This document shows positions 16,582-38,124 of a stretch of 64,000 nt of DNA, in pieces. Source of the DNA: Alphaproteobacteria bacterium (GTDB taxonomy: Bacteria > Pseudomonadota > Alphaproteobacteria > VGDZ01); the NCBI GenBank assembly GCA_016869515.1, contig VGDZ01000003.1, positions 18,804 to 82,803 on the forward strand, read 5' to 3'. The translations under genes and the position numbers were made by a program. Position 1 is the stretch's first letter. Every line of letters begins with the position of its first letter. Under the pieces are notes generated by a model. It was not told where the DNA came from. It did no database searches and was given only the letters and a program-made list of their open reading frames with translations.

Positions 16582-16743
16582 CGCGTTTTCCCCCGGCTGA
16601 AACGTTGACGATGGAGCATGATTCGAAATGCTAGAGGATGAATCGGACCGGCGCCAGAGTGTCTTCCATTCCACCGCCTGGGCGCGCGCTTGACGAAATC
16701 GGCGCGGATGCGAAAGTCCGCCAGCGGAACGGAGGACAGGTCG

Positions 16744-17631
16744 ATGGGTCAGAGCAAAGCGGCGCGGTTGCGGGCGGCGCTCGGCGGCGGGGACATCGTC
16801 GTCGCCGCCGGGGTCTACGACATGATCTCGGCGCGCATCGCCGACGGCATGGGCTTCAGCGCGCTCTACATGACCGGCTACGGCACGGTCGCCTCGGCGC
16901 TGGGCATCGCCGATGCCGGTCTGGCCAGTTATACCGAAATGGTCGAGCGCGTCGCGGTGCTGGCTGGCGGCACGGCGACGCCGATGATCTGCGACGCCGA
17001 CACCGGCTATGGCGGGCTGCTGAACGTGCGGCGCACGGTGCAGGGCTACGAGGCGGCGGGCGCCGCCGGCATCCAGATCGAGGACCAGGAGATGCCGAAG
17101 AAATGCGGTCATACGCTGGGCCGCCGCGTCGTGCCGCTGGAGGACATGGTGCTCAAGATCCGAGTCGCGGTCGAGGCGCGGCGCGATCCGGCAACGCTGA
17201 TCGTGGCGCGCACCGACTGCCGCACCACGCTCGGCATCGACGAGGCGCTGCGGCGCGGCGAGGCCTTCGCCAAGGCCGGCGCCGACGTGGTGTTCATCGA
17301 GAGTCCAGAAAGCCGCGCCGAACTCGAACGCATCGGCAAGGCGCTTTCGGGTTCGGCCTGGCTGCTGTGCAACATGGTCTATGACGGCCGCACGCCCGAG
17401 ACTCCGGCCGACGACCTCAAGCGCATGGGCTTCAGCATCGCCATCTATGCCGGCATGGCGCACAAGGCCGCGGCCGGCGCGCTGGAAGCGGCCTATCGCC
17501 ATCTCAAGGTCAAGCGCACCCAGATGGACATGCCGGGGCCGATGTATTCCAGCGCCAAGATGCACGAACTGATGGGTTTCCCCGAGGTCTGGGCGTTCGA
17601 GAAGCGCTGGGACCAGGGCCAGGCCGGCTGA
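16744..17631 (+). CDS. PEP mutase / isocitrate lyase superfamily enzyme (2-methylisocitrate lyase / dimethylmalate lyase / carboxyPEP mutase-like), paralog 1
   Basis: ATG 16744 (Met 19 of the track ORF); hallmark motifs DADTGYGG, IQIEDQ, KKCGH, VVFIE. Confidence 0.8.
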   Translation: MGQSKAARLRAALGGGDIVVAAGVYDMISARIADGMGFSALYMTGYGTVASALGIADAGLASYTEMVERVAVLAGGTATPMICDADTGYGGLLNVRRTVQGYEAAGAAGIQIEDQEMPKKCGHTLGRRVVPLEDMVLKIRVAVEARRDPATLIVARTDCRTTLGIDEALRRGEAFAKAGADVVFIESPESRAELERIGKALSGSAWLLCNMVYDGRTPETPADDLKRMGFSIAIYAGMAHKAAAGALEAAYRHLKVKRTQMDMPGPMYSSAKMHELMGFPEVWAFEKRWDQGQAG

Positions 17632-20176: not shown

Positions 20177-21439
20177 ATGGGCATGACCGCGCTGGAAAAG
20201 ATCTTCGCCCGCGCCAGCGGGGCGAAGTCGGTCGCGCCCGGCGATCTGGTGGTGGTCAACGTCGACACCGTGGTGATGCTCGACAGCAGTTTCTTTCCCT
20301 CGGTGCGGCGCGAGGTGGTCAAGGTCCACGATCCGCGCAAGGTGGCGGTGATCTACGATCATTTCGTGCCGGCGCCGGACGAAAAAGCCGCCGCCGCCCA
20401 GGCCTATGGCCGCGCCTTCGCGCGCCGCTTCGGCATCGAACGCTTCCACGACGTCGGCCCCGATCAAGGCATCAGCCACGCCGTGGTGGCGGATCACGGC
20501 TATGCCCTGCCGGGCAGCGTGCTGGTGTGCTCGGATTCGCACACTTGCGCCTCAGGGGCGTTCAACTGCGCCGCGCGCGGGATCGGCGCGCCCGACATGA
20601 TCTATGCCCTGACCACCGGCCAGACCTGGTTCCAGTTGGGCGGCACGGTGCGCTACGACCTGAGCGGTCGCCTGCGGGCAGGGGTCTCGGCCAAGGACGT
20701 GTTCCTGCATCTGGCCGGAACCTACGGCGATCACGCCAATTGCAATATCGAGTTCGGCGGCCCGGCTTTGGCCGATCTTGGCATCGGCGCGCGGCGCACG
20801 CTGGCGGCGATGGGCGCCGAGCTGAGCGCCGAGTTCGTCACCTTCGAGCCCGACCAGGCGCTGATCGACTACGTCAAGGCGCGCAATCCGGCGCCGTTCG
20901 AGCCGCAATACCCCGATGCCGAAGCGCGCTATCTCGACCGCCGCCGGGTCGATCTGGGCGCGATCGAGCCGCTGGTGGCGCGGCCGGACTCGGTGATCCG
21001 CAATTCGGTCGCGGTCGGCGCGGTCGCCGGCCAGCGCATCGACCAGGCCTTCATCGGTTCCTGCGCCAACGGCTCGCTCGACGACCTGGCCGAGGCGGCG
21101 CGCATCGTCGCAGGCCGCAAGGTGGCGCGCGGCGTGCGCTTCCTGGTGACGCCGGGTTCGCAGCGGGTCTATGCCGCCGCGCTGAAGGCAGGCCATGTCC
21201 AGACCTTGACCGAGGCCGGCGCGGTGGTCACCGCCGCCACCTGCGGCGCCTGCTTCGGCGGCCATATGGGCGTGCTGGGTCCGAACGAGGTCTGCATCAC
21301 CGCCTCGACCCGCAACTTCAAGGGCCGCATGGGCGCGGCCAGCGCCCGCATCTTCATGGCCTCGCCGGCGACGGTCGCCGCCTCGGCCATCGCCGGCAGC
21401 ATCGTCCATCCCGGCGAGTTCGCGGGAGGGCGCGCGTGA
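20177..21439 (+). CDS. Aconitase-family dehydratase large subunit (LeuC / dimethylmaleate hydratase DmdA-like, short ~420-aa type)
   Basis: ATG 20177; Fe-S cluster ligand motifs VCSDSHTC, IGSCANGS and TCGACFG. Confidence 0.8.
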   Translation: MGMTALEKIFARASGAKSVAPGDLVVVNVDTVVMLDSSFFPSVRREVVKVHDPRKVAVIYDHFVPAPDEKAAAAQAYGRAFARRFGIERFHDVGPDQGISHAVVADHGYALPGSVLVCSDSHTCASGAFNCAARGIGAPDMIYALTTGQTWFQLGGTVRYDLSGRLRAGVSAKDVFLHLAGTYGDHANCNIEFGGPALADLGIGARRTLAAMGAELSAEFVTFEPDQALIDYVKARNPAPFEPQYPDAEARYLDRRRVDLGAIEPLVARPDSVIRNSVAVGAVAGQRIDQAFIGSCANGSLDDLAEAARIVAGRKVARGVRFLVTPGSQRVYAAALKAGHVQTLTEAGAVVTAATCGACFGGHMGVLGPNEVCITASTRNFKGRMGAASARIFMASPATVAASAIAGSIVHPGEFAGGRA

Positions 21440-21930
21440 TCGCCGGCCGGGTGTGGAAGTTCGGCGACGACATCAACACCGATCTGATGCTGCCGGGATC
21501 GGTGCTGTATGCCTCGGAGGAGGAACAGAAGCGCGCCGTGTTCGCCGCCAACCGACCGGGCTGGGTCGATCAGGTCAAGCCCGGCGACGTGCTGGTGGGC
21601 GGGCGCAATTTCGGCATGGGTTCGAGCCGGCCGGCGGCGCGGTCCTTGCGCAACCTCGGCCTCGCCTGCGTACTGGCCGAGTCGATCAACGGCCTATTTT
21701 TCCGCAACGCGGTCAATTTCGGCCTGATCGCCTTGGCCTGCCCGGGCGTGCACGCGGCGTGCGAGGAGGGCGACCGGTTGGAACTGGCGATCGCGGATTG
21801 GCGGGCAAGCAACGCACGGACCGGCGTGGCGCTTGCGGTGACGCCGATCCCCGAGGCGCTGCTCAAGCTGATGACCGGCGGCGGCATCTACCCGCATCTC
21901 GAGCAGCGCGGCCTGATCCTGCCGCGTTGA
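21436..21930 (+). CDS. Aconitase-family dehydratase small subunit (LeuD/DmdB-like)
   Basis: GTG 21436 overlapping large-subunit stop (GTGA); 164 aa; swivel-domain motif NFGMGSSR. Confidence 0.75.
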   Translation: MIAGRVWKFGDDINTDLMLPGSVLYASEEEQKRAVFAANRPGWVDQVKPGDVLVGGRNFGMGSSRPAARSLRNLGLACVLAESINGLFFRNAVNFGLIALACPGVHAACEEGDRLELAIADWRASNARTGVALAVTPIPEALLKLMTGGGIYPHLEQRGLILPR

Positions 21931-23825: not shown

Positions 23826-24800
23826 CTACTCATAGGTAACCCGAGGATCGATCGCGCCGTAGAGCAGATCGGCGATCAGGTTCAAGGCCAAGGTCACCAG
23901 CGCCATCAGATAGAGCGCCGCTTGCGCCACCGGAAAATCGAGATGGGTCAGCGCCTGGACCAGCTCGCGTCCCAACCCCGGCCAGGCGAAGATGATCTCG
24001 AGCAGAACCTGGCCCTGGAACAGGATTCCGGTCATCACCGCGACATAGGTCACCAGCGGCAAGAGCGCATTGCGCGTGGCATGGACCACGATCCGGCCCT
24101 CGCCCAGCCCCTTGGCGCGCAACATGTCGAGAAAGTCGCTGCCCTTGACCTCCAGCATCGAGGACCGCAGCAAGAGGATCGGCCCGGTGATCTCGCGGCT
24201 GACCAGCACCAGCCCGGGCAGGACGAGATGCTTCCAATAGTCGGGCGAGGCCAGCATGCCCCACAGCGTGTCCGGCCCGCCCAGCGGCACCATCCCGCCG
24301 GGCGGCAGCCAGCGCAACTGATAGGAAAACACCATCAGCGCCAGGATGCCGACGAAGAAAGACGGCACCGAATGCAGCACCAGCGAGGTCGCCACCGCCG
24401 CGCGCTCGAACACGCTGCCGCGCGTCCAGCCGGCATAGGCGCCGATCAGGGTGCCGAACACCACGCTGACCAGCAGCGCCGGCACGATCATCAGGCAGGT
24501 GTTGCGGACCTTGTCGAGCATGATCTCGGCCACCGACTCGTTCTGAAAGAAAGGATGGCCGAAATCGAACAACAGCATGTTGCGCAGATAGCGCAGATAC
24601 TGCACCCACCACGGATCGTTCAGCCCCCACAGCATGCGCTGGCGCTGGATCATGTCCTCGGTGAAGTTGTTGTCGACGAAGATCGCGGTCGGATCGCCCG
24701 GCATCAGCTTGAACAGCAGAAACATGATGGTCAGGATGCACCAGACGACGAAGCCGGCTTGCGCCAGCCGTCGCAGCAAATAGCGCCGGAATCCCCCCAT
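23826..24800 (-). CDS. Dpp/Opp-type ABC transporter permease (DppB-like)
   Basis: 324-aa TM protein with ATG 24800. Confidence 0.85.
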   Translation of the reverse strand: MGGFRRYLLRRLAQAGFVVWCILTIMFLLFKLMPGDPTAIFVDNNFTEDMIQRQRMLWGLNDPWWVQYLRYLRNMLLFDFGHPFFQNESVAEIMLDKVRNTCLMIVPALLVSVVFGTLIGAYAGWTRGSVFERAAVATSLVLHSVPSFFVGILALMVFSYQLRWLPPGGMVPLGGPDTLWGMLASPDYWKHLVLPGLVLVSREITGPILLLRSSMLEVKGSDFLDMLRAKGLGEGRIVVHATRNALLPLVTYVAVMTGILFQGQVLLEIIFAWPGLGRELVQALTHLDFPVAQAALYLMALVTLALNLIADLLYGAIDPRVTYE

Positions 24801-24824: not shown

Positions 24825-26657
24825 CTATCCGCCGAGCATCTTGAGTCCGCCCCAAGTCAGGCCAGGCTTCGAGACGCGGACCACGCGTTGCCGCCAGCCG
24901 GCGTTGACGGGCGCGGGATAGACCAACCGCCCATCGCTGGCCCAGGCGTATCCGGCCGCGCGCAGGATCTCGCGCGCCTTGCCGAGGTCGAAGCCCGGCA
25001 CCGCCGGCAGGTCGGGATTGTGCCAAGGATTGCCTTCGGCCAGGAAGGTGTTGGACTTGGGCACGCGGCCGGCGCCTTCCCAAGGAACCTTGACCAGGAA
25101 TTCGCGGTCGATGCTGTGCTGCCAGGCCAGGCGGAACTCGTAGTCGCGCCAGGGCAGCACCGAGGCCCGCACCACGCCGTGCAGCCAGTTGACGTCGGGC
25201 GTGCGCTCGATGCGCACATGCGAGGACTTGGCCAACTGGGCGGCCTGGCTCGGAGTCAGGCTGATATTGCTCGATTCGATGACGTCGATCTCGCGGCTCT
25301 CCAGCCGCCCCATCAGCCCGTCGAGCGAGGGCGTCACCACCACCCAGATGTCGTCGACTTGGGGCGGATCGAAGTGCTTCTTGTTGGCGATCAGCTGCAG
25401 CTCGGTGTCCTTGCGGTGCCGGCCGAAGCGATAGGGGCCCGAGCCGATCGGCGTGTCGATCCGCAACCGCCGCGGATCGCCGGCGGTGTTCTGCTCCTCC
25501 ATGATGTTGCCCCAGATGTGCTGGGGCAGGACGACGTTGAGCTGCATGAAATAGCTCTCGAACTGGCCGTAGGGCTGCTTGAATCGGGTACGCAGCACGC
25601 CATTGGCCTCGTCGACGATCTCGGCGCTTTCGAGGAAGCGGTTGGCGGTCCAGAATATGCCGCGCTCGTACTTGACCATGAAATCGAGGGTGAACTTGAG
25701 GTCGCGCACCGTCACCGGCCGGCCGTCGTGGAACTCCATGCCCTTGCGCAGGGTCAGGTCCCAAGTCCGCTCGTCCAGCCGCCGCCAGGATTCCACCGCC
25801 CAGGGGATGACGTTGAGGTTCTCGTCGTAATAGGCCAAGCGATCGTAGATCATGCGCCCGATGGCGCGCATGTTGTTGGTCGCGCCCAGGAGATTGGTGG
25901 TCTCGAGCAGGTTGGTCATGCCGACCCGCAGGCTCTTGCGATTGCCCTTGGGCTTGACCCGCGAGAAGCCGAGGAAGGCGTTGAAATTGCCAATACCGAA
26001 GCCGCGCGACTTGACGAAATTGTCCCAATCGCCGCCGTTATAGGCCTCGATGATCGAGGGCCCCCAGCCGAACACGCAGGGATAGAGATCCTCGGCCATG
26101 ACCCGCGCCGCCTCGCGCACCAGCTTGAGGCGCTCGGCCGGATCGCTGGCGGCGGATTGGCGGTCGATCAAGTCGTCGTATTGCTCGACCACCCATTCGC
26201 CGTAATTGCGGCGGTCGCTGCCATAGCCGCGCGAGACGATCCATTCCGCCGGATCGACCCGCTCGGGCCGGAGGACGGCGGGGTGGACCTCGATGTCGCC
26301 GTGGCGGTGGACGTTGATTTCCTCGAGCCAGCGCGCCTGGGACATCTGTTCGAGCTTGTAGCGCAAGCCCAGTTGCTCGCCGTCCTTGGACCATTTGCGG
26401 AAGGCATCCAGCCAGGCCGGCTCGGTATTGGGGATGATGACCCGGATCTCGGGCACGCGCTCGCCGGCCTGCGGCCAGGTCAGGCGCGCGGCCGTCTCCT
26501 TCACCCATTGCGGGTCCTTGATGTAGTAGCCGGCGACATCGTCGTAGAATTTGCGGTATTTGGGGTTGACGACATCGATCGCGGGCTCGGCCTGGGCCAA
26601 AGCCGGGCCGGCGGCACCGCTGGCGGCCATCAGCATCATCAGGCTGCGGCGATCCAT
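24825..26657 (-). CDS. ABC transporter substrate-binding protein, family 5 (DppA/OppA-like), Tat-type signal
   Basis: Start chosen at MDRRSLMMLMAASGAAGPALA (RR signal); alternative start at 26690; about 610 aa, typical for family 5. Confidence 0.8.
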   Translation of the reverse strand: MDRRSLMMLMAASGAAGPALAQAEPAIDVVNPKYRKFYDDVAGYYIKDPQWVKETAARLTWPQAGERVPEIRVIIPNTEPAWLDAFRKWSKDGEQLGLRYKLEQMSQARWLEEINVHRHGDIEVHPAVLRPERVDPAEWIVSRGYGSDRRNYGEWVVEQYDDLIDRQSAASDPAERLKLVREAARVMAEDLYPCVFGWGPSIIEAYNGGDWDNFVKSRGFGIGNFNAFLGFSRVKPKGNRKSLRVGMTNLLETTNLLGATNNMRAIGRMIYDRLAYYDENLNVIPWAVESWRRLDERTWDLTLRKGMEFHDGRPVTVRDLKFTLDFMVKYERGIFWTANRFLESAEIVDEANGVLRTRFKQPYGQFESYFMQLNVVLPQHIWGNIMEEQNTAGDPRRLRIDTPIGSGPYRFGRHRKDTELQLIANKKHFDPPQVDDIWVVVTPSLDGLMGRLESREIDVIESSNISLTPSQAAQLAKSSHVRIERTPDVNWLHGVVRASVLPWRDYEFRLAWQHSIDREFLVKVPWEGAGRVPKSNTFLAEGNPWHNPDLPAVPGFDLGKAREILRAAGYAWASDGRLVYPAPVNAGWRQRVVRVSKPGLTWGGLKMLGG

Positions 26658-26711
26658 CTTTGGACCTTTGAAGCGCTCTTGCCTGCTCATGTCGCGTCCC
26701 CTTCTTCTCGC

Positions 26712-27733: not shown

Positions 27734-28750
27734 TCAGTTGAAACGCGGGTTCTCGATCAGATGGCAGGCGGCCTGGTGGCCCTCGCCGACCGCCACCGGC
27801 TGCGGCGCGACCTCGCGGCACAGCGTGCCGGCGTGCCGACAGCGGGGGTGGAAGTGGCAACCGCGCGGCGGGTCTATCGGGTTGGGCACCGCGCCCGGCA
27901 GGGCGATGCGCGCGCGCCGGCGTGGGCCCATCGCCGGCACCGCCGCCATCAGCGCCTGGGCATAGGGGTGCCGCGGCGAGTCGAGCACGGCGCGCGCCGG
28001 GCCGATCTCGACGATGCGGCCGAGATACATCACCGCCACGCGCCGGCAGATATGGCGCATGGTCGACAGGTCGTGCGAGACGTAGAGGATCGCCATCGCC
28101 TGCTCCTCGGCGAAGCGGCGCAGCAGGTTCAGGATTCCGGCCCGGATCGAAATGTCGAGCATCGACACCGGCTCGTCGGCCACCAGGAAACTGGGCTCGA
28201 CGGCGATGGCGCGGGCGATGGCGACGCGTTGCAATTGGCCGCCGGAAAGCTGATGCGGAAAGCGCTCGAGATAGGTCGCGACCGGACTAAGGCCGGCGCG
28301 CTCGAGCGCGCGCACTATTCGTTCCCGGCGTCCCGCCGGGCTGTCGTCGAAATGAATCGCCACCGGCTCGCCGACCGCGTCGGCCACGGTGAAGCGCGGA
28401 TTGAGCGCCTCATAGGGGTTCTGGAACACGATCTGGGCGCGGCGGCGGAATGCCTTGAGCCGCGCGCCCGAAAGTCCGGCGGTATCTTCGCCTGCAAATC
28501 GGATCTCGCCGGCGCTGGGCGAGAGCAGGCGCAGCACCGTCATGCCGGTGGTCGACTTGCCGCAGCCGCTTTCGCCGGCGAGGCCCAGCACTTCGCCCGG
28601 GACCAGGCTGAAGCCGACGCCGTCGACCGCGCGCACATGGCGTTCGACGGCGCCGGCCAGAGTCGCAATCAGGCCGCGCCGCACCGGAAACCATTTGCGC
28701 AGCGCCTCGACCGCGATCACCGGGGCGGGCCCCGGCGCCGGTGCGCTCAC
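27734..28750 (-). CDS. Dipeptide/oligopeptide-type ABC transporter ATP-binding protein (DppF/OppF-like)
   Basis: GTG 28750 overlapping upstream gene stop (GTGA); Walker [10 protein letters not shown], signature LSGGQLQRVAIARAI, Walker B LVADEPVSMLD; the upstream 160 aa of the track ORF are out-of-frame overlap. Confidence 0.8.
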   Translation of the reverse strand: MSAPAPGPAPVIAVEALRKWFPVRRGLIATLAGAVERHVRAVDGVGFSLVPGEVLGLAGESGCGKSTTGMTVLRLLSPSAGEIRFAGEDTAGLSGARLKAFRRRAQIVFQNPYEALNPRFTVADAVGEPVAIHFDDSPAGRRERIVRALERAGLSPVATYLERFPHQLSGGQLQRVAIARAIAVEPSFLVADEPVSMLDISIRAGILNLLRRFAEEQAMAILYVSHDLSTMRHICRRVAVMYLGRIVEIGPARAVLDSPRHPYAQALMAAVPAMGPRRRARIALPGAVPNPIDPPRGCHFHPRCRHAGTLCREVAPQPVAVGEGHQAACHLIENPRFN

Positions 28751-29688
28751 GGCCGGAAGCCGATCGAGCCCTCGTAACGTCGCTGCATCTCTTCGGTCGG
28801 CAGGTACTGTTCCTCGAGCTTGCGGATCGCGGGGAAGCCGACAAAGGTATGGAAATCGGCCGCCGGGTGGCCGTTGAGTTCCGGCTTGAGCCGCTCCTCC
28901 AGCGCCGCGTCCTCGCGCGCGAAATCGTGCAGATAGTCCCACATCGCCCGCGCCGCGGCGCGCATCGCGCCGCCGGCATTGGCGACCAGGAACACCTTCA
29001 TCTGGTTCATCTCGGCCAAGGTCAGGTTGGGCGAAACCCCGGTCCGGTTGTAGAGCAGCGGCGCCTTGACCTCGCGCGCCACCCGCTCCATCTCGGCGCG
29101 GCTCAGCAGGCCCTCGGGAAAGAACACGTCCATGCCGGCGTCGATGTAGGCCTTGCCGCGGCGGATGGTCTCTTCGAGGCTGCCGCCGGCAACGCCGCGC
29201 GCATCGCAGCGCGCGATCAGCACCACGTCCTTGTCGCAACGATCGCGCGTCGCCACCGCGGCGCGGTACTTGCCGACCGCTTCCTCCAGCGAGATGATCT
29301 GCTTGCCCGAGACGTGGCCGCAGCGCTTGGGCGCGACTTGGTCCTCCATGAACATGCCGCCGACGCCGGCCTTGATGAACTGCTCGACCGTGCGGATGGC
29401 GTTGATGGCGTTGCCGTAGCCGGTGTCGGCGTCGGCCATCACCGGAATGTCGACCGCATCGCAGACATAGCCGGTGACTTGCACCACCTCGCTCATCGTC
29501 GTCAGGCCGACATCGGGCTTGCCGATCAGCGTCGCCGACAGCGAATAGCCCGAGACGCCGACGGTCTCGAAGCCGGCCTTTTCGGCGATCTGCGCCGACA
29601 TGGCGTTGAACACGCCCGGCTGCACGTAGGTCTTGCCGCCCCGCAGCATTTCGCGGAAACGACGGGACATGCCCTTGAGTCCGGCCAT
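28747..29688 (-). CDS. PEP mutase / isocitrate lyase superfamily enzyme, paralog 3
   Basis: ATG 29688 (MAGLKGM); motifs DADTGYGN, FMEDQ, KRCGH; source gene of the remnant at 11855..11975. Confidence 0.8.
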   Translation of the reverse strand: MAGLKGMSRRFREMLRGGKTYVQPGVFNAMSAQIAEKAGFETVGVSGYSLSATLIGKPDVGLTTMSEVVQVTGYVCDAVDIPVMADADTGYGNAINAIRTVEQFIKAGVGGMFMEDQVAPKRCGHVSGKQIISLEEAVGKYRAAVATRDRCDKDVVLIARCDARGVAGGSLEETIRRGKAYIDAGMDVFFPEGLLSRAEMERVAREVKAPLLYNRTGVSPNLTLAEMNQMKVFLVANAGGAMRAAARAMWDYLHDFAREDAALEERLKPELNGHPAADFHTFVGFPAIRKLEEQYLPTEEMQRRYEGSIGFRP

Positions 29689-29874
29689 CGGCGCCCTCCC
29701 TTGGCGATCGATCAAGATCGAGCGATGAGTGTCAAAAGCGCGCCTGGGCGAGTCAACCCGATTTTTCCCCATGACTGCCTGGCGAAAATAGGGTTGCCGA
29801 CAGCCGTGCATGTGCCCGTTCCGGGACTAGAATGGACCTCCGGCAACGAGGCCGATCGTCTTCGGGGAACGCAC

Positions 29875-31287
29875 ATGACCGGACCACGGACATTCTTCGA
29901 GAAGGTTTGGAGCGATCACGTCATCGCCGACCTCGGCGACAACACCGCGCTGCTGCAGATCGACCGGCTGTTCCTGCACGAGATGAGCGGCTCGGTGGCG
30001 ATGCGGCAGCTGGCCGAGTCCGGTCGCGAGCCGGCCATGCGCGAGCTGGTGTTCACCGTCATCGACCACGTCATCGACACCGCGCCCGGGCGCGGGCTCG
30101 ACCAGTCGCGCTCCAAGGCCGGCCCCGAGATGATCCGCGCGGCACGCGCGGGGTCGCGCAGATACGGATTCAATTTCGTCGACGTCGACGATCCCCGCCA
30201 GGGCATCGTCCACGTCATATCGCCCGAGCTGGGCGTGGCCTTGCCTGGATTGACCCTGGTTTGCGGCGACAGCCATACCTGCACCGTCGGCGGCGTCGGC
30301 GCGCTGGCCTGGGGCATCGGCTCGACCGAGGGCGAGCACGTGCTGGCGACGCAGACCCTGCCGCAAGTCAGGCCCAAGGCGATGCGGGTCAATTTCGAGG
30401 GCAAGCCGGCGAAGGGGGTCTATCCCAAGGACATGGTGCTGGCGTTGATCGGCAAGATCGGCGCCAATGGCGGCATCGGCTATGCGGTCGAGTTCGCGGG
30501 ATCGGCGATCCGCGAAATGCCGGTCGAGGGGCGGTTGACGATCTGCAACATGGCGATCGAGTTCTCGGCCAAGTACGGCTTCGTCGCGCCCGACGAGATC
30601 ACCATCGACTATCTCAAGGGCCGCGAATATGCGCCCAAGGGTGCGGCTTGGGAGGCGGCGGTGCGCTATTGGCGATCCCTGCCCAGCGATCCCGGCGCGC
30701 GTTTCGAACACGAAGTCACGGTCGACTGCGGCGGGTTGAGCCCGCAGGTCACCTGGGGCACCAGCCCGCAGCAGGTGGTCGGCATCGACGGCCGCGTGCC
30801 CGACCCGGCGTCGGCCGACGATCCCGGCACGCGGACGCTGATCGAACGCGCGGCCGAATACGCCAAGCTCAAGCCCGGCCAGCCGATCCAGGGCGTCAAG
30901 ATCGACGTCGCCTATATCGGCTCCTGCACCAATGCGCGGCTGTCGGATCTGCGCGTGGCGGCGAACGTTCTCAAGGGCAAGCGCATCGCCGGCGGCGTGC
31001 AGGGCATTTGCGTTCCCGGCTCGACCGCGGTCAAGCGTGCGGCCGAGGCCGAGGGTCTCGACCGCGTGTTTCGCGATGCCGGCTTCGAATGGCACGAATC
31101 CGGCTGCGCCATGTGCGGTCACATGGGCAACGACCGGCTGGCGGATTTGCGCGTGATCAGCACCACCAACCGCAATTTCGAGGGTCGCCAGGGGCCGGCC
31201 ACCCGCACCCATCTCGCCAGCCCGGCGACGGTGGCGGCGTCCGCGCTGCGCGGACAGATCGCCGACGTCCGCGGCCTGATCGGCTAG
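29875..31287 (+). CDS. 3-isopropylmalate dehydratase large subunit-like (LeuC, ~470-aa bacterial type)
   Basis: ATG 29875; motifs VCGDSHTCT, IGSCTNARLSD and CAMCGHMG (Fe-S ligands). Confidence 0.85.
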   Translation: MTGPRTFFEKVWSDHVIADLGDNTALLQIDRLFLHEMSGSVAMRQLAESGREPAMRELVFTVIDHVIDTAPGRGLDQSRSKAGPEMIRAARAGSRRYGFNFVDVDDPRQGIVHVISPELGVALPGLTLVCGDSHTCTVGGVGALAWGIGSTEGEHVLATQTLPQVRPKAMRVNFEGKPAKGVYPKDMVLALIGKIGANGGIGYAVEFAGSAIREMPVEGRLTICNMAIEFSAKYGFVAPDEITIDYLKGREYAPKGAAWEAAVRYWRSLPSDPGARFEHEVTVDCGGLSPQVTWGTSPQQVVGIDGRVPDPASADDPGTRTLIERAAEYAKLKPGQPIQGVKIDVAYIGSCTNARLSDLRVAANVLKGKRIAGGVQGICVPGSTAVKRAAEAEGLDRVFRDAGFEWHESGCAMCGHMGNDRLADLRVISTTNRNFEGRQGPATRTHLASPATVAASALRGQIADVRGLIG

Positions 31288-31296
31288 GCGCGCACC

Positions 31297-31944
31297 ATGG
31301 AAAGCCTGGTGCGGATCAAGGGCGTGGCGGCGCCGCTTTTGCGCATCAATGTCGATACCGACCAGATCATCCCGGGGCCCGAGATCATGGCCTCGGTCGA
31401 CGAGAGCTATGCGCGCTGGGGCACCGGCCTGTTCGCTTATTGGCGCTATCTCGACGGCGCCGGTGGGGCGCACACGCCGAATCCCGAGTTCGTCCTCAAC
31501 CGGCCGCCCTATGACCGCGCCGTGATCCTGCTGGCGGACCGCAATTTCGGCTGCGGCTCCTCGCGCGAGCCGGCACCCAAGGCGCTGCGCGGCTTCGGAA
31601 TCCGTGCCGTGATCGCGCCGTCCTTCGGCGGCATCTTCTTCAACAACTGTTTCCGCAACGGGGTCCTGCCGATCGAGCTGTCGATCGAAGCGGTGCGCGA
31701 ACTGGCGGGCCAGGTCGAGCGCTCGCAAGGGCGCGGCGAGATATCTGTCGACCTGGAAGCCCAACGCATCACCGCGCCCGAAGGCGACGGCTACGGCTTC
31801 AGGACGCCGCCCTTGTTGCGACGCATGCTGCTCGAAGGCCTGGACGAGATCGGCGCCACGCTGGCTCGGCGCGGCGAGATCGAAGGTTTTCGCGGTCGAG
31901 ACCGATCGCGACGTCCCTGGGCCTATCGGCCCGGACTGGCTTGA
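31297..31944 (+). CDS. 3-isopropylmalate dehydratase small subunit-like (LeuD), copy 1
   Basis: 215 aa; NFGCGSSRE, APSFGGIFFNNCFRNG. Confidence 0.85.
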   Translation: MESLVRIKGVAAPLLRINVDTDQIIPGPEIMASVDESYARWGTGLFAYWRYLDGAGGAHTPNPEFVLNRPPYDRAVILLADRNFGCGSSREPAPKALRGFGIRAVIAPSFGGIFFNNCFRNGVLPIELSIEAVRELAGQVERSQGRGEISVDLEAQRITAPEGDGYGFRTPPLLRRMLLEGLDEIGATLARRGEIEGFRGRDRSRRPWAYRPGLA

Positions 31945-31955
31945 GAGGTGCCGCC

Positions 31956-32585
31956 ATGGAAAAACTGACCAAGATCTCGGCCATTGCCGCGCCGATGCTG
32001 CGCATCAACATCGACACCGACCAGATCATTCCCGCCCGCTTTTTGGTTCGCGTCACCAATGACGGCCTGGGCGAGGGCCTGTTTGCCGGCCAGCGCTACG
32101 GACGCGACGGCAAACCCAATCCCGACTTCATTCTCAATCGCGCGCCTTACGATCGCGCCGAGATCCTGCTGGCCGACCGCAATTTCGGCTGCGGCTCCTC
32201 GCGCGAGGCGGCGCCGATGGCGCTGCGGCAACGCGGCTTCCGGGCGGTGATCGCGCCCTCCTTCGGCGGCATCTTTTTCAACAATTGCTTTCGCAACGGC
32301 GTCGTTCCGGTCGAGCTGCCGATCGAGGCGGTGCGGCAGATCGCGGCCGAAGTCGAGGCGACGCAGGGCCAGGGCAAGGTCGGCGTCGATCTCGAAGGCG
32401 AGGCCGTGACCACGCCCAGCGGCGCGGTGTTCAAGTTCCGCTCGCCGCCGCTATTGCGCGAAATGCTGTTGGCGGGGGCGGACGAGGTCGATCTGACCCT
32501 GCGCCGCGGCGAACAGATCGGCGACTTTCGCGGCAAGGACTCGGCCAAGCGTCCCTGGGCCTATCGGCCGGGTCTGGCGAACTGA
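31956..32585 (+). CDS. 3-isopropylmalate dehydratase small subunit-like (LeuD), copy 2 (tandem duplicate)
   Basis: ATG 31956 preceded by GAGAGG; near-identical core motifs to copy 1 (NFGCGSSREAAP, APSFGGIFFNNCFRNG). Confidence 0.8.
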   Translation: MEKLTKISAIAAPMLRINIDTDQIIPARFLVRVTNDGLGEGLFAGQRYGRDGKPNPDFILNRAPYDRAEILLADRNFGCGSSREAAPMALRQRGFRAVIAPSFGGIFFNNCFRNGVVPVELPIEAVRQIAAEVEATQGQGKVGVDLEGEAVTTPSGAVFKFRSPPLLREMLLAGADEVDLTLRRGEQIGDFRGKDSAKRPWAYRPGLAN

Positions 32586-32622: not shown

Positions 32623-33852
32623 ATGACCGACGCGCAACGTCTTGCCGCGGGAGTCGATCCGCGCCGCGCGCTCGACTTTCTTGCCGCGATGGTTCGCCAC
32701 AAGAGCTACAGCAATACGCCGGGTGAGACCGAGCTTGCGCGCTTCATGGTGGCGGAAATGCAGAAACTCGGCATGGATGCGCGCCTGCAGCCGGTCGAGG
32801 GCGAGCGCTGCAACGCCATCGGCGTGTGGAAGGGCACGGGCGGCGGCAAGAGCCTGCTGTTCAACGGCCATCTCGATACCAATCCCGTCACCGGCGGCTG
32901 GACGGTCGATCCCTGGGGCGGGTTGGTAGACGACAAATTCATTTACGGCATCGGCGTCTCCAACATGAAGGCGGGCGACGCCGCTTATTTCTGCGCCGTG
33001 CGCAGCTTGATCGAGAACGGCGTTCGGCTGCGCGGCGACGTCGTCCTGACTTATGTTGTCGGCGAGTTGCAGGGCGGGGTTGGCACCATCAAGGCGATCG
33101 AAGCGGGCATTCGTGCCGATTATTTCATCAATGCCGAGCCGACCGACATCGCTGCCCTGACCTTGCACGCCGGCGCGTTCAACTGGACGGTCGAGCTCGA
33201 AGGCGTCACCCGCCACGTCTCCAAACGCGAGCAGGCCTGCGATGCGCTGCAGGCCGCGTCGGTGCTGGTGCCGCGACTGAACGCGCTTGAATTCAGCGGC
33301 GCCGCCAGCGAGGAGCACCGAGCCGTCAACCGCTGCCATGTCGGCGTGATGCGTTCGGCGCTGACGCCGGAATTCCACGATTGGCGCCCGCCGCAGGTAG
33401 CCGATTTCGCGCGACTGATCGGTACCGGTCGCTACGCCCCCAGCCAATCCGAGGACAGCGTCCTGGCCGACATTCGCCGCGAACTTGATTGGTTGCAACG
33501 CGAGTTTCCCGGCCTCAAGGCCAAGGTCGAACGCCAGCGCACCGGCCAGGTACAGCGGGCCTCGATGCTGCCCTTCGAGGTCGACCGATCCAGCCCGATC
33601 GTGCAGGCGATCAACGCCGCCCATCGGGCCGTCCGCCGAACGCCGCAGCCGACCGGTGCGATCGCGCCGCAATGCTATTACGGCACCGATGCCGCGCACC
33701 TGCAGCATCGCGCCGGAATGCAAGGCATCGTCTGCGGCCCGGGCGGCCGTTACAACACCATGCCCGACGAACGTGTGGACATTGTCGACTATCTCGACGC
33801 CGCCAAGATCTATCTCTTGACCGTGCTCGACATCTGCGGCCGGTCCGCCTAG
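32623..33852 (+). CDS. M20-family metallopeptidase / deacylase (ArgE/DapE/ACY1-like)
   Basis: 409 aa; metal-binding motifs NGHLDT, GVSNMKAG, and C-terminal YGTDAAHL. Confidence 0.8.
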   Translation: MTDAQRLAAGVDPRRALDFLAAMVRHKSYSNTPGETELARFMVAEMQKLGMDARLQPVEGERCNAIGVWKGTGGGKSLLFNGHLDTNPVTGGWTVDPWGGLVDDKFIYGIGVSNMKAGDAAYFCAVRSLIENGVRLRGDVVLTYVVGELQGGVGTIKAIEAGIRADYFINAEPTDIAALTLHAGAFNWTVELEGVTRHVSKREQACDALQAASVLVPRLNALEFSGAASEEHRAVNRCHVGVMRSALTPEFHDWRPPQVADFARLIGTGRYAPSQSEDSVLADIRRELDWLQREFPGLKAKVERQRTGQVQRASMLPFEVDRSSPIVQAINAAHRAVRRTPQPTGAIAPQCYYGTDAAHLQHRAGMQGIVCGPGGRYNTMPDERVDIVDYLDAAKIYLLTVLDICGRSA

Positions 33853-33999: not shown

Positions 34000-34761
34000 A
34001 TGGCGCGAGTTGGAAAACCGCGCGGCTCGAGCCGGCGCGACCACTTCGGCGATGCGGTCTACGCCCAGATCAAGGCCGACATCTTCGACTTTCGCCTGCT
34101 GCCCGGCGCCCGCTTCTCGGAAAACGAGGTCGCCCGGCGGGCGCGCGTTTCGCGCACGCCGGTGCGCGAGGCACTGATGCGGCTCGAGCGGGAGGGCTAT
34201 CTTCAGGTCCACGCCAAGAGCGGTTGGAGCGTCTGCCCGCTCGATTTCGCGCAGTTCGACCACCTCTACGACCTGCGCGTCGTGCTCGAACTGGCGGCGG
34301 TGCAGAAGCTGTGCGCCGGCAAGGACATCGCCGCCCTCGATCGGCTGCGTGCGATCTGGCTGGTGAGTCCGTCCCTGCGCGTGGTCGACGGCGCCAAGCT
34401 GGCCCGGATGGACGAGGAGTTCCACTCGACCCTGGTCGCCGCCGCCGGCAATCCCGAAGTCGCGCGCATCCATCACGGCATTACCGAGCGCATCCGCATC
34501 CTGCGGCGGCTCGACTTCACTCATCCCGAACGCATCATCTACACCTATCGCGAACACGCCGAGATCCTGCGCGCGCTGCTGGCGCGCGACGCCGATCGCG
34601 CCTCGGCTTTGTTGCGCGCGCATATCGAGGCCAGCCGGGCGGTGGTGCAGACCATCACCCTGCACCGGCTGCACCTTGCGCATCTCGATGCCAAACCGTC
34701 TGCCAGGACCAACGGGGCCGCACGCAAGCCGGCCGCCGCGCGTGCCCCTCGCCGGCGCTAG
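34000..34761 (+). CDS. GntR-family transcriptional regulator (FadR/FCD subfamily)
   Basis: N-terminal wHTH (EVARRARVSRTPVREAL) and helical FCD-type C-terminal domain. Confidence 0.85.
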   Translation: MARVGKPRGSSRRDHFGDAVYAQIKADIFDFRLLPGARFSENEVARRARVSRTPVREALMRLEREGYLQVHAKSGWSVCPLDFAQFDHLYDLRVVLELAAVQKLCAGKDIAALDRLRAIWLVSPSLRVVDGAKLARMDEEFHSTLVAAAGNPEVARIHHGITERIRILRRLDFTHPERIIYTYREHAEILRALLARDADRASALLRAHIEASRAVVQTITLHRLHLAHLDAKPSARTNGAARKPAAARAPRRR

Positions 34762-34876: not shown

Positions 34877-36229
34877 CTACTCTTCCTTGGGGAAGACCAG
34901 GTTCAGCCCCATCGCCAGCATGATGCCCATGACGATGCCGTCGGTGACGAGGATGCGCAGCGCCTGCGGGATGGCGTCGAACGCCCCCGGCGGCGCCGCC
35001 TGAATCCCCAAGCCCAGCCCCAGCGAGGCGGCCAGGATCAAGGCGTCGCGGCGCGAGGTCATGTTGCGGCCGATGATGTCGATGCCGACCGAGGCCACCA
35101 TCCCGAACATGAACAGCAGCACGCCGCCCAGCACCGCGTTCGGCATCAGGGCGATGATCGCTCCCACCTTCGGCACCAGCGCCATCAGGATCAGGAAGAA
35201 GCCGCCGAAGGCGACGACGAAGCGGCTGCCGACGCCGGTCAGCGAGATGACGCCGATGTTCTGCGAATAGGACGTCAATGCCATGCCGCCGAACAGGGCC
35301 GACAGCGTCGAGCCGATGCCGTCATTCGAGACCGCGCCGCGGATGCGCCAGCCTTCGGCCGGAACGCCGCAGATGCGCGATACCGCCAGGGTATGGCCGG
35401 TGGTCTCGACCGCGGTGGCGAAGAAGCACACCACCACCGCAATGATGCCGACGATGCCCGGCCATTCCAGGCCGCCATAGGGAAACGGCATCGGCACCGC
35501 GATCCAGTCGGCCTTGCCGACCGCGCTGATGTCGATCAGGCCGGCCGCGGCGGCGACGAGATAGCCGATGATCATGGTCACGAACAGCGACAGCGCGCGC
35601 ACGAACCCCTTGGCAAAGCGGCTGATGACCAGGATCAACACGATCATCAGCGCCGCCAGGCCGATGGTCAGCGGCTTGCCGAAGGCGGGCGTGCCGAAAC
35701 CCGAGGCGACGTTGATGCCGATCTTCATCAGACCGGTGCCGATCAGCAGGATGGTGGTGCCGGTGACGATCGGCGGGAAGAAGCGATGCAGTCTGCCGAT
35801 CAGCGGACTCCAGGCGAACTGCACCAGGCCGCCGATCATCAGCGCCGTCATCGCCGCCGCCAGGCTTACGTCCTTGGCGATGGCGACCATGGGGCCGATG
35901 AAGATGTAGAACACGCCCATCACGATCGGCAGGCGCGGCCCGATGAAGGACATGCCCAGCGCCGAAATCATGGTGGCGACGCCGCAGCCGATCATGGTGC
36001 CCGAGACCATCAGGATGCGGGTCTCTTCGGACAGGTTGAGCAGCCGCCCGACGATCAGCGGTCCGCCGACCATGGCGGTGAACATCACCAGCACGTGCTG
36101 AATGCCGAACAGCGCGGTCTTGACCGGCCCGGGATAGTCGTTCAGCTCGTAGTCGAGCTTGACGAAACCGCGATCGCCCCCGTGTCCGCCATGCGCTTGC
36201 GCGGCGGCTGCGTTTTCTTGGCTGCTCAT
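34877..36229 (-). CDS. Nucleobase:cation symporter-2 (NCS2) family purine/xanthine/uric-acid-type permease
   Basis: 450 aa with about 12-14 TM segments; NCS2-like glycine-rich TM composition. Confidence 0.8.
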   Translation of the reverse strand: MSSQENAAAAQAHGGHGGDRGFVKLDYELNDYPGPVKTALFGIQHVLVMFTAMVGGPLIVGRLLNLSEETRILMVSGTMIGCGVATMISALGMSFIGPRLPIVMGVFYIFIGPMVAIAKDVSLAAAMTALMIGGLVQFAWSPLIGRLHRFFPPIVTGTTILLIGTGLMKIGINVASGFGTPAFGKPLTIGLAALMIVLILVISRFAKGFVRALSLFVTMIIGYLVAAAAGLIDISAVGKADWIAVPMPFPYGGLEWPGIVGIIAVVVCFFATAVETTGHTLAVSRICGVPAEGWRIRGAVSNDGIGSTLSALFGGMALTSYSQNIGVISLTGVGSRFVVAFGGFFLILMALVPKVGAIIALMPNAVLGGVLLFMFGMVASVGIDIIGRNMTSRRDALILAASLGLGLGIQAAPPGAFDAIPQALRILVTDGIVMGIMLAMGLNLVFPKEE

Positions 36230-38055
36230 GGTTTATCCTTCCCTTCCTTGACGAAATTGCGCCAGCTGCCGAGATTCGAAATATCCCACGCCGCGCGCAC
36301 GGCGTGGGCCTCGCACAAGAACCCTTTGACCTGGGTGCCGTCTTCCAGCGCCACCGTTCCGATGCCCAGCGGCGCCGGAATGCCGTCGACGAAGCCGCCG
36401 AAGCCGGCGGCCGGCACCTCCCACACCTCGACCTCGATCGACGCGCCGGACTCGGCGCGCACCAGGCCCGGTCGCGGCGGCGAGAACTCGGTCAAGGCGT
36501 AGAAGCGATAGAGCGGCGCCGTCCGGCATTTGCGCGCCAGCCGCCCGCCGCGCTCGGTCAGCTGGTGGTTGAGCGGCAGCCCCGACATGTGCGCTCCGCA
36601 CACCGCGACCTGGATGGTGGCGTTCGCCTTGGCCGGCGCGGCCAGCGTCGCCGGTCGCCCCGACGGCAAGGCCGTTCCGGTCGCGCCCATGGTGCCGCCC
36701 GCCGCCCGCTGCAGCGCGTCGGCCAGGACGCACAGCGATTCGTCGGCGAAGGCCGGGGCGATCAGGGTGATGCCGAAAGGCAGCCCGTCGGCTTGAAAGC
36801 CCGCCGGCAGCGCGATCGCCGACAGGTCGAGCAGGTTCATGAAATTGGTGTAGTGGCCAAGATTGCTGTTGGTGCGGATCGGATCGGCTTCGACCTCGGA
36901 GATCCGGTAGATGGTTCCCGCGGTCGGCGTCACCAGGATGTCGAATTCGTCCCAGACCGGCGCGGTCTCCCGCCGCAGCGCCTTCAAGCGATCGAACGCG
37001 GCGAACGCATCGACCGCGGTGAAGCGCGTCGCCCCGCCGATGATCTTCCGCGTCACCGGGTGCAGCGCCTCGGGCCGTTTTTCGATGAAGTCGCGGATGG
37101 CGACATAGCGCTCGGCTACCCAAGGCCCTTCGTAAAGCAGCCGCGCGGTGGCGAAGAACGGCGCAAAATCCACCTCCGCCCTCTCGGCCCCGAGCGCATC
37201 CAGTCGCGCCATCGCCTGTTCGAACAGGCCGGCGGCGTCGCGGTTGCCGAAGAACTCCAATTGATTCTTGCGCGGCACGCCGATGCGGAGACCTGCGAAC
37301 GCGATCGGCACAGCCCCATGGCCAGCGCCTCGATCCGGGCGCGAATAGGGGTCGGCAGCATCGAACCCGCGCGCCACCCGCAACACCGACGCCGCGTCGG
37401 CCGCGGTCAAGGCGAAGATCGACACGCAATCGAGCGACCGGCAGGCCGGCACGACCCCACGCGTGCTAAGCAGCCCGCAGCTGGGCTTGAGTCCGATCAG
37501 GTTGTTGAACGCCGCCGGCACTCGACCGGAGCCGGCGGTGTCGGTGCCGAGCGCGAAGCTGGCAAGCCCGGCGGCGACCGCGATCGCCGAGCCCGAGCTG
37601 GAACCGCCCGGGACATAGTCCGCATCGAAGCTGTTGGCGGGCACGCCATAGGGCGACCGCACGCCGACCAGGCCGGTGGCGAACTGGTCGAGATTGGTCT
37701 TGCCGATGGGGATCGCCCCCGCCGCCACCAGTTTTTCGACCACCGGCGCCGAGCCGCCCGCGAGGTAGCGGAAATCCGGGCAGCCGGCGGTGGTGGGGTG
37801 CCCGGCGAGGTCGATGTTGTCCTTGATCGCGAAAGGGATGCCGTAGAGCGGCAGACCGTCCGGCCCGCGGCGCTCGAGTGCCGCAGCCTGGGCCCGCAAG
37901 GCGTCGTCGGCCAGGCGGTGGATCCAGACCTTGTCGTCGCCGCGCCTGGACAGCCGCCGCAGCAATCCCTCGACCATCTGGCTTGGACGCAGCGCCCCGG
38001 CCCGATACCGCGCGCCGAGCGTATCCAGGTCGAGCGAGTCCCCCTCATCCAGCAT
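36226..38055 (-). CDS. Allophanate hydrolase-like protein (amidase-signature domain plus C-terminal AtzF-type domain)
   Basis: Start at MLDEGDSLDL (ATG 38055) because the track start at 38112 is a TTG inside the upstream palindromic region; amidase-signature stretch GGSSSGSAIAVAAGLASFALGTDTAGSGRVPAAFNNLIGLKPS; about 600 aa as expected for allophanate hydrolase. Confidence 0.8.
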   Translation of the reverse strand: MLDEGDSLDLDTLGARYRAGALRPSQMVEGLLRRLSRRGDDKVWIHRLADDALRAQAAALERRGPDGLPLYGIPFAIKDNIDLAGHPTTAGCPDFRYLAGGSAPVVEKLVAAGAIPIGKTNLDQFATGLVGVRSPYGVPANSFDADYVPGGSSSGSAIAVAAGLASFALGTDTAGSGRVPAAFNNLIGLKPSCGLLSTRGVVPACRSLDCVSIFALTAADAASVLRVARGFDAADPYSRPDRGAGHGAVPIAFAGLRIGVPRKNQLEFFGNRDAAGLFEQAMARLDALGAERAEVDFAPFFATARLLYEGPWVAERYVAIRDFIEKRPEALHPVTRKIIGGATRFTAVDAFAAFDRLKALRRETAPVWDEFDILVTPTAGTIYRISEVEADPIRTNSNLGHYTNFMNLLDLSAIALPAGFQADGLPFGITLIAPAFADESLCVLADALQRAAGGTMGATGTALPSGRPATLAAPAKANATIQVAVCGAHMSGLPLNHQLTERGGRLARKCRTAPLYRFYALTEFSPPRPGLVRAESGASIEVEVWEVPAAGFGGFVDGIPAPLGIGTVALEDGTQVKGFLCEAHAVRAAWDISNLGSWRNFVKEGKDKP

Positions 38056-38093
38056 CGATTGGCCCTTGGCGAAGTTCCCTGATCCGGCACTAG

Positions 38094-38124
38094 TATACAA
38101 CATGGTATACAAAGCAACCTATAC
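38094..38124. promoter_or_regulatory. Low-GC divergent promoter region with repeated GTATAC-type GntR-like boxes between the allophanate hydrolase and fdrA genes
   Basis: tagtatacaacatggtatacaaagcaacctatacagatat: GTATAC at 38094 and 38105, CTATAC at 38119. Confidence 0.4.

Follow-up and report, generated by a model that had tools for sequence, protein, structure and literature searches.

A gene for one LeuC-like large subunit followed by two tandem genes for LeuD-like small subunits in an alphaproteobacterial contig

Genes of the LeuC-LeuD1-LeuD2 locus

Within a contig of an alphaproteobacterium (VGDZ01000003.1, positions 18,804 to 82,803), a stretch of 64,000 nucleotides (nt), in the following referred to as the window, was analyzed around a gene for a LeuC-like, iron-sulfur (Fe-S) large subunit of the aconitase family, which is directly followed by two tandem genes for LeuD-like small subunits, LeuD1 (D1) and LeuD2 (D2). 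This arrangement is real and conserved. On the opposite strand, and diverging from LeuC, lie genes of the isocitrate lyase/phosphoenolpyruvate mutase (ICL/PEP-mutase) family together with the genes of an ATP-binding cassette (ABC) importer (Table 1).

The window has a G+C content of ~68% and its codon-position G+C profile allowed the unambiguous assignment of reading frames over 15-37 kb. Residues 9-460 of LeuC match the Pfam Aconitase profile PF00330 over its full length with 498.5 bits. The protein scores above the cutoff of the paralog-rich subfamily NF009116 (662 bits, cutoff 531) and just below that of the leuC equivalog TIGR00170 (559.6 bits, cutoff 560.25). Cys351 (within GSCTN) as well as Cys411 and Cys414 (within GCAMC) are present, which we take to be equivalent to the [4Fe-4S] ligands of the E. 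coli enzyme; an intact gene of 470 amino acids (aa) with all three Fe-S cysteines, as described in the original prediction, was therefore recovered.

The two LeuD genes, described there as complete, are likewise both intact. Their products are 61% identical and have in common NFGCGSSRE and APSFGGIFFNNCFRNG, the former being kept in D1, D2, and all orthologs. Both exceed the cutoff of PF00694 (Aconitase_C, 22.8 bits) and of the leuD family TIGR00171 (189.2 bits for D1 and 184.2 bits for D2, cutoff 116.25), and both stay below the cutoff of TIGR02087, the short-type LeuD/DmdB family (66.6 and 78.9 bits, respectively, cutoff 108.95). An AlphaFold model, covering D1 only and built from a 104-sequence alignment, reached a mean predicted local distance difference test (pLDDT) score of 94.3. 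Foldseek returned LeuD structures as top matches of this model (3Q3W, 2HCU, and 3H5J; template modeling (TM) score 0.93-0.95, root-mean-square deviation 1.3-1.9 A), with LeuD of C. jejuni (3Q3W, TM 0.93) as the best, followed by aconitase domain 4. In the homology search, D1 was found to be 100% identical to a protein (P0001) from an alphaproteobacterial metagenome-assembled genome (96-kb contig).

The genes are closely spaced, with 9 nt between LeuC and D1 and 11 nt between D1 and D2. A simple promoter and terminator scan yielded nothing above background and no terminator between LeuC, D1, and D2. The longest open reading frame (ORF) of D2 opens at TTG 31941 and would overlap D1 by 4 nt, but the start is best placed at ATG 31956, where MEK or MEQ is found in every ortholog. 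The original prediction of a D2 gene overlapping D1 and bringing its own GAGAGG ribosome-binding site is consequently to be modified: the site (31943-31948) does overlap the TGA stop codon of D1 (31942-31944), while the coding regions lie 11 nt apart when read from the conserved ATG.

Table 1. Predicted features of the LeuC-LeuD1-LeuD2 locus and its surroundings, in positions of the window
Feature	Position	Strand	Remarks
LeuC, Fe-S large subunit, long (bacterial) type	29875..31287	+	470 aa; PF00330
LeuD1 (D1), small subunit	31297..31944	+	215 aa; PF00694 96.8 bits; GSSRE motif
GAGAGG ribosome-binding site for LeuD2	31943..31948	+	read from sequence; 7 nt before ATG 31956
LeuD2 (D2), small subunit	31956..32585	+	209 aa from ATG; PF00694 98 bits; GSSRE motif
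Divergent intergenic (promoter) region, lyase/transporter operon versus LeuC operon	29689..29874	.	between PEPm3 and LeuC starts
PEPm3, ICL/PEP-mutase-family lyase, KRCGH	28747..29688	-	~313 aa; PF13714 165.5 bits; ORF extends to 29811
Opp/Dpp-type ABC ATPase	27734..28750	-	PF00005 and PF08352; start approximate, candidate GTG 28750
PEPm2, ICL/PEP-mutase family, variant KRCGF loop	26712..27713	-	~333 aa; PF13714 137.2 bits; ORF extends to 27860
Family-5 solute-binding protein, atypical layout	24825..26690	-	621 aa; PF00496 over residues 294-590 only
Two Opp/Dpp permeases	23826-24800 and 22959-23816	-	Pfam BPD_transp_1, OppC_N
Second ABC ATPase	21940 to ~22950	-	Pfam ABC_tran, oligo_HPY
M20 (ArgE/DapE-type) deacylase	32623..33852	+	PF01546; 37 nt 3' of LeuD2; TIGR01910 141 bits, below cutoff
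GntR/FCD-family regulator	34000..34761	+	PF00392 and PF07729
Short-type aconitase-family pair	LeuC_S 20177-21439, LeuD_S 21436-21930	+	NF001614, TIGR02087
PEPm1, third ICL/PEP-mutase-family lyase, KKCGH	16690..17631	+	PF13714 145.4 bits

Divergence of the small subunits and conservation of the arrangement

Together with the invariant GSSRE, a short recognition region is the established specificity determinant of the archaeal (Methanocaldococcus jannaschii) and plant (Arabidopsis thaliana) enzymes (PMC7308503). In D1 this region comprises GPEIM (residues 27-31) and a 3-aa insertion ending in RWG (residues 39-42), whereas it reads ARFLV in D2 and KQFLK in leuB-linked long-type LeuD. Among 12 D1 orthologs, G27, E29, I30, M31, and R40-W41-G42 are invariant, and position 28 is occupied by P, S, or A. 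The five positions following DTDxIxP in the M. jannaschii structures are ARYLV in the isopropylmalate/citramalate isomerase (3VBA) and GPYLR in homoaconitase (2PKP). The ARFLV of D2 is thus close to the loop of an enzyme for small alkyl malates, while the conserved Glu and the insertion of D1 have no characterized counterpart.

Segment identities were computed across the seven loci carrying both D1 and D2. For residues 27-62, the D1-D2 identity drops to 0.38, compared with 0.71-0.75 within each type. On either side of this segment the two comparisons nearly converge, with 0.75 (within-type 0.79-0.83) for residues 1-26, 0.82 (0.84-0.86) for residues 63-125, and 0.60 (0.57-0.64) from residue 126 to the end. 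Furthermore, nine out of 11 strictly type-diagnostic columns fall into residues 27-62, including all five positions of the recognition region (Fisher p=1.7e-6); P92, which immediately follows GSSRE in the protein, makes up a tenth. At the level of sequence, D1 and D2 consequently differ almost only in the segment that opens with the recognition region, in agreement with the divergence in substrate recognition that had been proposed for the two small subunits. Values of dN/dS between loci ranged from 0.2 to 0.4 for D1 and from 0.27 to 0.44 for D2, with dS probably being compressed by codon bias, and place both copies under purifying selection as judged from these alignments. Considering the retained GSSRE motif and the similar dN/dS, neither of the two looks degenerate. 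Among the best database homologs of D1, ~32 out of 36 were of the D1 type.

The tandem was found via contigs of closer metagenomic homologs and by a metagenome scan (related loci are given as L numbers). LeuC-D1-D2, or D1-D2 on short contigs, occurs on ~10 contigs. The order D1-then-D2 is seen in L082, L083/L084, L085 (= L090), L086, L087, L088, L126, L151, and L160, with D2 orthologs in second position in L082, L083, L085-L088, L126, L151, and L160. The full order LeuC-D1-D2 is present in the window, L083, and L085-L088, and D1-D2 stands alone on the short contigs L126, L151, and L160. Wherever the contig reaches, exactly one LeuC lies directly 5' of D1 with gaps of 8-25 nt, and the LeuC of the window is 73-80% identical to those of the other D1-D2 loci. 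One carrier is a complete Burkholderiales genome (L086, CP070753.1), and alphaproteobacterial-like contigs are included among the others. This recurrence of the D1-then-D2 order across loci indicates an arrangement beyond chance. A scan of GTDB representative genomes with D1 retrieved matches of at most 66% identity, each with one LeuD per LeuC and no LeuD-LeuD tandem; nearly all of these relatives adjoin a PEP_mutase-family gene. In a plasmid collection no D1 ortholog was detected, the best match being 57% identical.

Some related loci deviate from this layout. L081 had been considered as a LeuC-LeuD-LeuC-LeuD locus and was left out of the counts of the tandem, as its two units (6424-10639) are 94% identical on DNA level and a hybrid of D1 and D2 takes the place of the second LeuD. 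Compared with L082, this LeuD is a chimera of a D1 N-terminal half and a D2 C-terminal half, representing either an assembly artefact or recombination between tandem paralogs. Directly 3' of the last LeuD, both loci carry a gene for a 236-aa class I S-adenosylmethionine-dependent methyltransferase (L081 10684-11394, L082 1635-2345). Its assignment as a trans-aconitate methyltransferase was dismissed because no such model matched and only weak generic matches were obtained. In L125, the gene directly 3' of a D2-type LeuD encodes a LeuD of the GRELIRVH type, with a lyase gene coming next, and in L091-L099 a LeuC-LeuD(GKEIMRGS) unit is convergent with a short LeuD-LeuC unit and two lyase genes. 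Such combinations give the impression that small subunits have been exchanged between clusters.

Linked lyase genes, proposed pairing, and rival explanations

The original prediction had also pointed to PEP-mutase-family lyases in the vicinity. Three such genes (PEPm1-PEPm3) were found in the window, matching the PEP_mutase/ICL profile PF13714 with 137-166 bits and remaining below all equivalog cutoffs (best TIGR02317 prpB, 191-238 bits versus 354.4). The catalytic Cys loop reads KKCGH in PEPm1 and KRCGH in PEPm3, where it is conserved among the orthologs; PEPm2 carries the variant KRCGF, which was seen in 8/8 aligned orthologs (including L003, L011, L027, L028, L081, L083, and L085) and which retains the Cys but not the His. 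The K(K/R)CGH form presumably marks the lyase branch of the ICL/PEP-mutase superfamily. Within the loop, the Cys is the proposed catalytic acid (PMC7609661). Among solved structures, PEPm3 comes closest to methylisocitrate lyase (3EOO), petal death protein (1ZLP), 2,3-dimethylmalate lyase (3FA3, E 1e-41), and oxaloacetate acetylhydrolase. Its start is most likely ATG 29688, with GGGAGGG upstream and a resulting length of 313 aa like that of its orthologs, and PEPm2 starts at ATG 27713 with an AAGGAG site. Orthologs of PEPm3 with 79-82% identity adjoin LeuC in L081, L083, L085, L086, and L088. On contigs reaching far enough, PEPm3, ATPase, PEPm2, the binding protein (620-630 aa), and the permeases are arranged divergently upstream of LeuC. 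The linkage is recurrent beyond the tandem as well: a PEP_mutase-family gene adjoins LeuC-LeuD in most loci of the lyase-linked clade, and the lyase clade tracks the recognition-region type of LeuD, with the abundant Burkholderiales ALFLGGTD type always standing beside one particular lyase clade.

The ATPase gene is inserted between PEPm3 and PEPm2, the ends of the genes overlapping, and this unusual interleaving of transporter and enzyme genes is kept in L081, L083, L085, and L086. The orthologs of the family-5 binding protein have 628-630 aa. In the protein of the window, the PF00496 match ends at profile position 291/368, and a weak match to the C-terminal lobe (approximately residues 281-498) of the AgaA and DppA structures was obtained with residues 1-260; judged from these partial matches, the 621-aa protein may be circularly permuted. 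In the region between PEPm3 and LeuC, boxes of the form TGTCAAC ... GTTGACA resembling divergent -35 boxes were noticed at opposite ends (L083 7132-7392, L085 5645-5793, L086 7562-7755, L088 1228-1639); within 29689-29874 of the window, only the minus-strand box is clear (GTGTCAA, GAGTCAAC).

The position of LeuC-D1-D2 beside carbon-carbon lyases and an importer suggests that the system probably serves the degradation of two kinds of substituted malate and not the synthesis of leucine. Based on the gene arrangement and the divergence of the loops, we lean toward the explanation that D1 and D2 serve as alternative partners of the one large subunit and that the two resulting isoforms, differing in specificity, would feed the lyases. 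LeuC-D1-D2 would then be expressed as one operon, with LeuC:D1 and LeuC:D2 acting as heterodimeric hydro-lyase/isomerase isoforms. These would share their catalytic machinery, i.e., the three Cys cluster ligands and the Ser/Arg motif GSSRE, and would read different side chains via the recognition region, GPEIM plus the RWG insertion in the case of D1 and ARFLV in the case of D2. Compounds brought in by the Opp-like ABC importer would be processed by the LeuC:D isoforms, either by hydration of a substituted maleate or by isomerization of a 2- to a 3-substituted malate, and PEPm3 and PEPm2 would cleave the C2-C3 bond, yielding glyoxylate or pyruvate and a carboxylic acid. What we infer comprises the pairing of both small subunits with this LeuC, a difference in their specificities, the pathway direction, and the class of substrate, the term substituted malates being derived from the chemistry of both enzyme families. 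The degree of LeuC conservation bears on the pairing: compared with the LeuC of the window, identity amounts to 75-80% for LeuC next to GPEIM/GKEIM-type LeuD, to 62-71% next to ARFLV-like or ALFLG singles, and to 44-51% next to the KQFLK (housekeeping) LeuD. LeuC identity thus tracks the D1-type loop, which gives D1 the appearance of the cognate partner and D2 that of a second, added one. Specificity swapping through alternative small subunits, as put forward in the original prediction, fits all sequence evidence and is the best available hypothesis.

Several observations weigh against this explanation. In neighbor-joining (NJ) trees, bootstrap values of only ~0.2 were obtained for the groups of D1 and of D2, and this support disappears without the columns of the recognition region. 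As a consequence of the weak clades, the orthology rests mainly on the recognition segment and gene order; outside the loop, the D1/D2 protein is either homogenized or equally constrained. A short-type LeuC is also present in the window and one further LeuC-LeuD pair stands in front of the tandem in L085, so that a partner assignment based on position is no proof. Loci with a single small subunit, namely LeuC with a D2-like LeuD in L113 and L115 and LeuC with a D1-related LeuD in L091-L099, show that one small subunit can suffice. Furthermore, the Phe in place of the loop His leaves the activity of PEPm2 uncertain, and the importer is of the peptide/nickel/opine type, which is not obvious for di- or tricarboxylates. 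In the literature, no account of a bacterial tandem two-small-subunit LeuCD or of this cluster was found, although the searched library was limited and this absence is weak evidence; likewise, nothing relevant appeared in it on maleate hydratase or on citraconate/citramalate catabolism linked to such lyases. Alternate pairing draws its support from sequence data.

Ordinary leucine biosynthesis with a redundant, duplicated leuD is the alternative closest to automated annotation, since the TIGR00171 scores above cutoff let pipelines name both genes 3-isopropylmalate dehydratase small subunit. However, tblastn with Bacillus leu-operon proteins revealed no homolog of leuA, leuB, or ilvC in the window, none of these genes was found within 10 kb of the related loci, and leuB adjoins only LeuD loci with at most 50% identity to D1 (leuB-linked LeuD 42-50%), carrying the KQFLK loop. 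In the NJ trees, the lyase-linked LeuD clade splits from the leuB-linked one with a bootstrap of 0.99-1.0, and D1 and D2 both fall outside the leuB-linked group. At 61% identity and with conserved type-specific loops, D1 and D2 do not represent a recent redundant copy either. The absence of a leucine-biosynthesis context, stated in the original prediction together with phylogeny as the means to check it, has thereby gained in firmness: by context, clade, and loop it is well supported that LeuC-D1-D2 are not the housekeeping leucine genes, and the duplication scenario, largely refuted already, deserves next to no credence. It is unlikely, too, that the two small subunits divide the labor on one substrate, with LeuC:D1 and LeuC:D2 performing two half-reactions or serving two binding modes of the cis-unsaturated intermediate, e.g., one isoform dehydrating a 2-substituted malate and the other hydrating the product to the 3-substituted malate. 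Aconitase-type isomerizations are indeed split between two enzymes in the methylcitrate cycle (PrpD and aconitase) and in fungal/Thermus lysine biosynthesis (homoaconitate), and such a division would suit a D1 and a D2 that by their gene layout appear always co-transcribed, in fixed order and with gaps of 10-25 nt, and that diverge from each other solely in the region of the active-site loop. Related loci nevertheless manage with a single small subunit per LeuC, two lyase paralogs beside two small subunits fit two parallel substrates better, and the differences are of the side-chain-selecting kind rather than concerning the binding mode (PMC7308503).

An obligate three-subunit enzyme, in which D1 and D2 assemble with LeuC or a LeuC dimer and one of them is catalytic while the other is structural or regulatory, appears quite improbable to us. 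The ratio of one LeuC to two LeuD genes, fixed in at least five full-context loci, and the ribosome-binding site overlapping the D1 stop, which suggests coupled translation, could be read in this sense. In the aconitase fold, on the other hand, one domain-4 equivalent closes one active site, as judged from the fold match and general knowledge of the family, and both D1 and D2 keep GSSRE at a similar dN/dS. We know of no three-subunit member of the aconitase family. Very little probability is likewise assigned to the option that one of the small subunits serves a large subunit elsewhere, be it the short-type LeuC, a housekeeping LeuC, or another paralog. A second LeuC does lie 8 kb away in the window, the L085 operon holds a second long-type LeuC, and the clusters are modular, differing in how many LeuC and LeuD they contain; yet the short LeuC is already provided with a short LeuD, whose gene overlaps that of the short LeuC, and is only ~35% identical to the long type, and L083, L086, L087, and L088 have LeuC-D1-D2 with no other LeuC in the available sequence. 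Moreover, when residues 27-62 are excluded, D2 shares 0.68 identity with D1 and 0.64-0.67 with single-copy D2-like proteins, a similarity that fits a shared partner and is, as far as sequence can tell, compatible with both binding the same LeuC. Finally, a biosynthetic role, i.e., chain elongation or isomerization on the way to a phosphonate-type compound or a secondary metabolite, the PEPm proteins acting as mutases, strikes us as highly improbable. PEP-mutase-family and aconitase-like enzymes co-occur in the biosynthesis of phosphinothricin and FR-900098, and the NCBIfam model that the GntR regulators match best, although below threshold, describes a phosphonate-utilization regulator. Set against this are the lyase-type Cys loop in all three PEPm proteins, their closest relatives being lyases, the lack of a LeuA/homocitrate-type synthase, a LeuB-type dehydrogenase, or any other biosynthetic gene, and a catabolic island with an importer and many amidohydrolases.

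Known systems and the wider neighborhood

The closest principle is found in the isopropylmalate isomerase (IPMI) of A. thaliana, in which one large subunit (LSU1) combines with the small subunits SSU1-3 and the preference is set by the recognition region (PMC7308503). There as here, as far as can be read from the genes of the window alone, a single Fe-S large subunit meets small subunits that keep GSSRE and differ in the five-residue recognition region. The plant genes, in contrast, are nuclear, unlinked, tissue- and plastid-specific, and biosynthetic (leucine versus methionine chain elongation), while the window holds bacterial small-subunit genes in tandem, in an operon with the large subunit and linked to lyases and an importer. 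LeuCD and HacAB of M. jannaschii share the specificity loop after DTDxIxP, with ARFLV of D2 resembling ARYLV and D1 beginning with GP like homoaconitase. They differ in being short-type (~160-170 aa), in having an own large subunit for each small subunit, and in their biosynthetic role; furthermore, the Tyr and Arg of homoaconitase are replaced by Glu and Met in D1, which also carries the 3-aa insertion.

In the nicotinate fermentation of Eubacterium barkeri, 2,3-dimethylmalate dehydratase (DmdAB) acts together with 2,3-dimethylmalate lyase. This pair, like aconitase/PrpD with PrpB and aconitase with isocitrate lyase, resembles the proposed system in that a hydratase/isomerase prepares a malate for an ICL-family lyase. 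However, DmdB is short-type, with only LeuD_S of the window passing TIGR02087 (124 versus 109; D1 67, D2 79), and the window lyase misses the PrpB equivalog cutoff (225 versus 354 bits). To our knowledge, no DmdAB/PrpB-like hydratase-lyase system has two small subunits. With housekeeping LeuCD, the genes share the long-type architecture, the fold (D1 model, TM 0.93 to C. jejuni LeuD), the Fe-S ligands, GSSRE, and a LeuD hidden Markov model score above cutoff, whereas identity (42-50%), clade, the absence of leuA/leuB linkage in the window, and the KQFLK loop of the leuB-linked genes set them apart.

If alternate pairing holds true, this would be the first bacterial, operon-encoded case of the Arabidopsis IPMI principle, with a substrate range widened by alternative small subunits; the location of LeuC, D1, and D2 in one operon makes the principle easy to test by co-expression. 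The clade is widespread: it was encountered here in both Burkholderiales and Alphaproteobacteria, and soil and freshwater metagenomes commonly contain it. Its genes are annotated by pipelines as "3-isopropylmalate dehydratase" and [quoted passage not shown], but most likely they make up catabolic pathways that are as yet undescribed. The recognition regions encountered in the family include GPEIM, ARFLV, ALFLG, GKELV, GKEIM, GRELI, TRFLL, VPEMT, and others. A broader reading, which we regard as possible and hold tentatively, is that co-transcribed alternative small subunits provide one Fe-S large subunit with two specificities and that the window belongs to a large modular catabolic family of LeuCD-like and ICL-like enzymes, whose recognition regions would serve as a substrate code matched to the lyase clades and whose members would open new routes for the degradation of alkyl- and carboxyalkyl-malates and maleates, for example of plant, fungal, or ring-cleavage acids. 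As a short motif, the recognition region also offers a practical handle by which the paralogs can be sorted and candidates selected when substrates are sought.

Beyond the tandem, the whole region looks like a catabolic island. The separate short-type LeuC/LeuD pair reported in the original prediction at 20177..21930 is present, with 430 bits for NF001614 and, for LeuD_S, 124.1 bits for TIGR02087 (108.95), both above cutoff. Short and long LeuC types are ~35% identical. In L091-L099, short pairs with 65-70% identity to that of the window adjoin LeuC-LeuD(GKEIM) and two lyase genes, which makes the mix of long and short pairs with lyases in the window a recurring association. The M20 deacylase is accessory, as different genes occupy its position in related loci, and genes for FCD-type GntR regulators lie directly 5' of LeuC in L085 and L086.

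Three further gene sets were noticed in the window. On the plus strand, a separate operon at 16690-21930 is headed by PEPm1, further comprises genes for an isochorismatase-like hydrolase and two PuuE-like proteins of the polysaccharide-deacetylase family, and ends with the short LeuC and LeuD; its makeup suggests a further hydratase-lyase pair supplied by the hydrolysis of amides or ureides. Positions 34877-42051 encode a xanthine/uracil permease, an allophanate hydrolase (Amidase and AH_C), an FdrA-like protein of the CoA-ligase fold, AllG (a subunit of oxamate carbamoyltransferase), and a carbamate kinase, i.e., a set of the oxalurate/ureide type of nitrogen catabolism. Positions 3468-8773 and 11851-12837 hold, among several ABC transporters, two AstE/AspA-type homologs of desuccinylase/aspartoacylase together with an amidohydrolase, an aminotransferase of class IV, and an RraA-like aldolase, which further points to an island devoted to compounds of the N-acyl or amide type.

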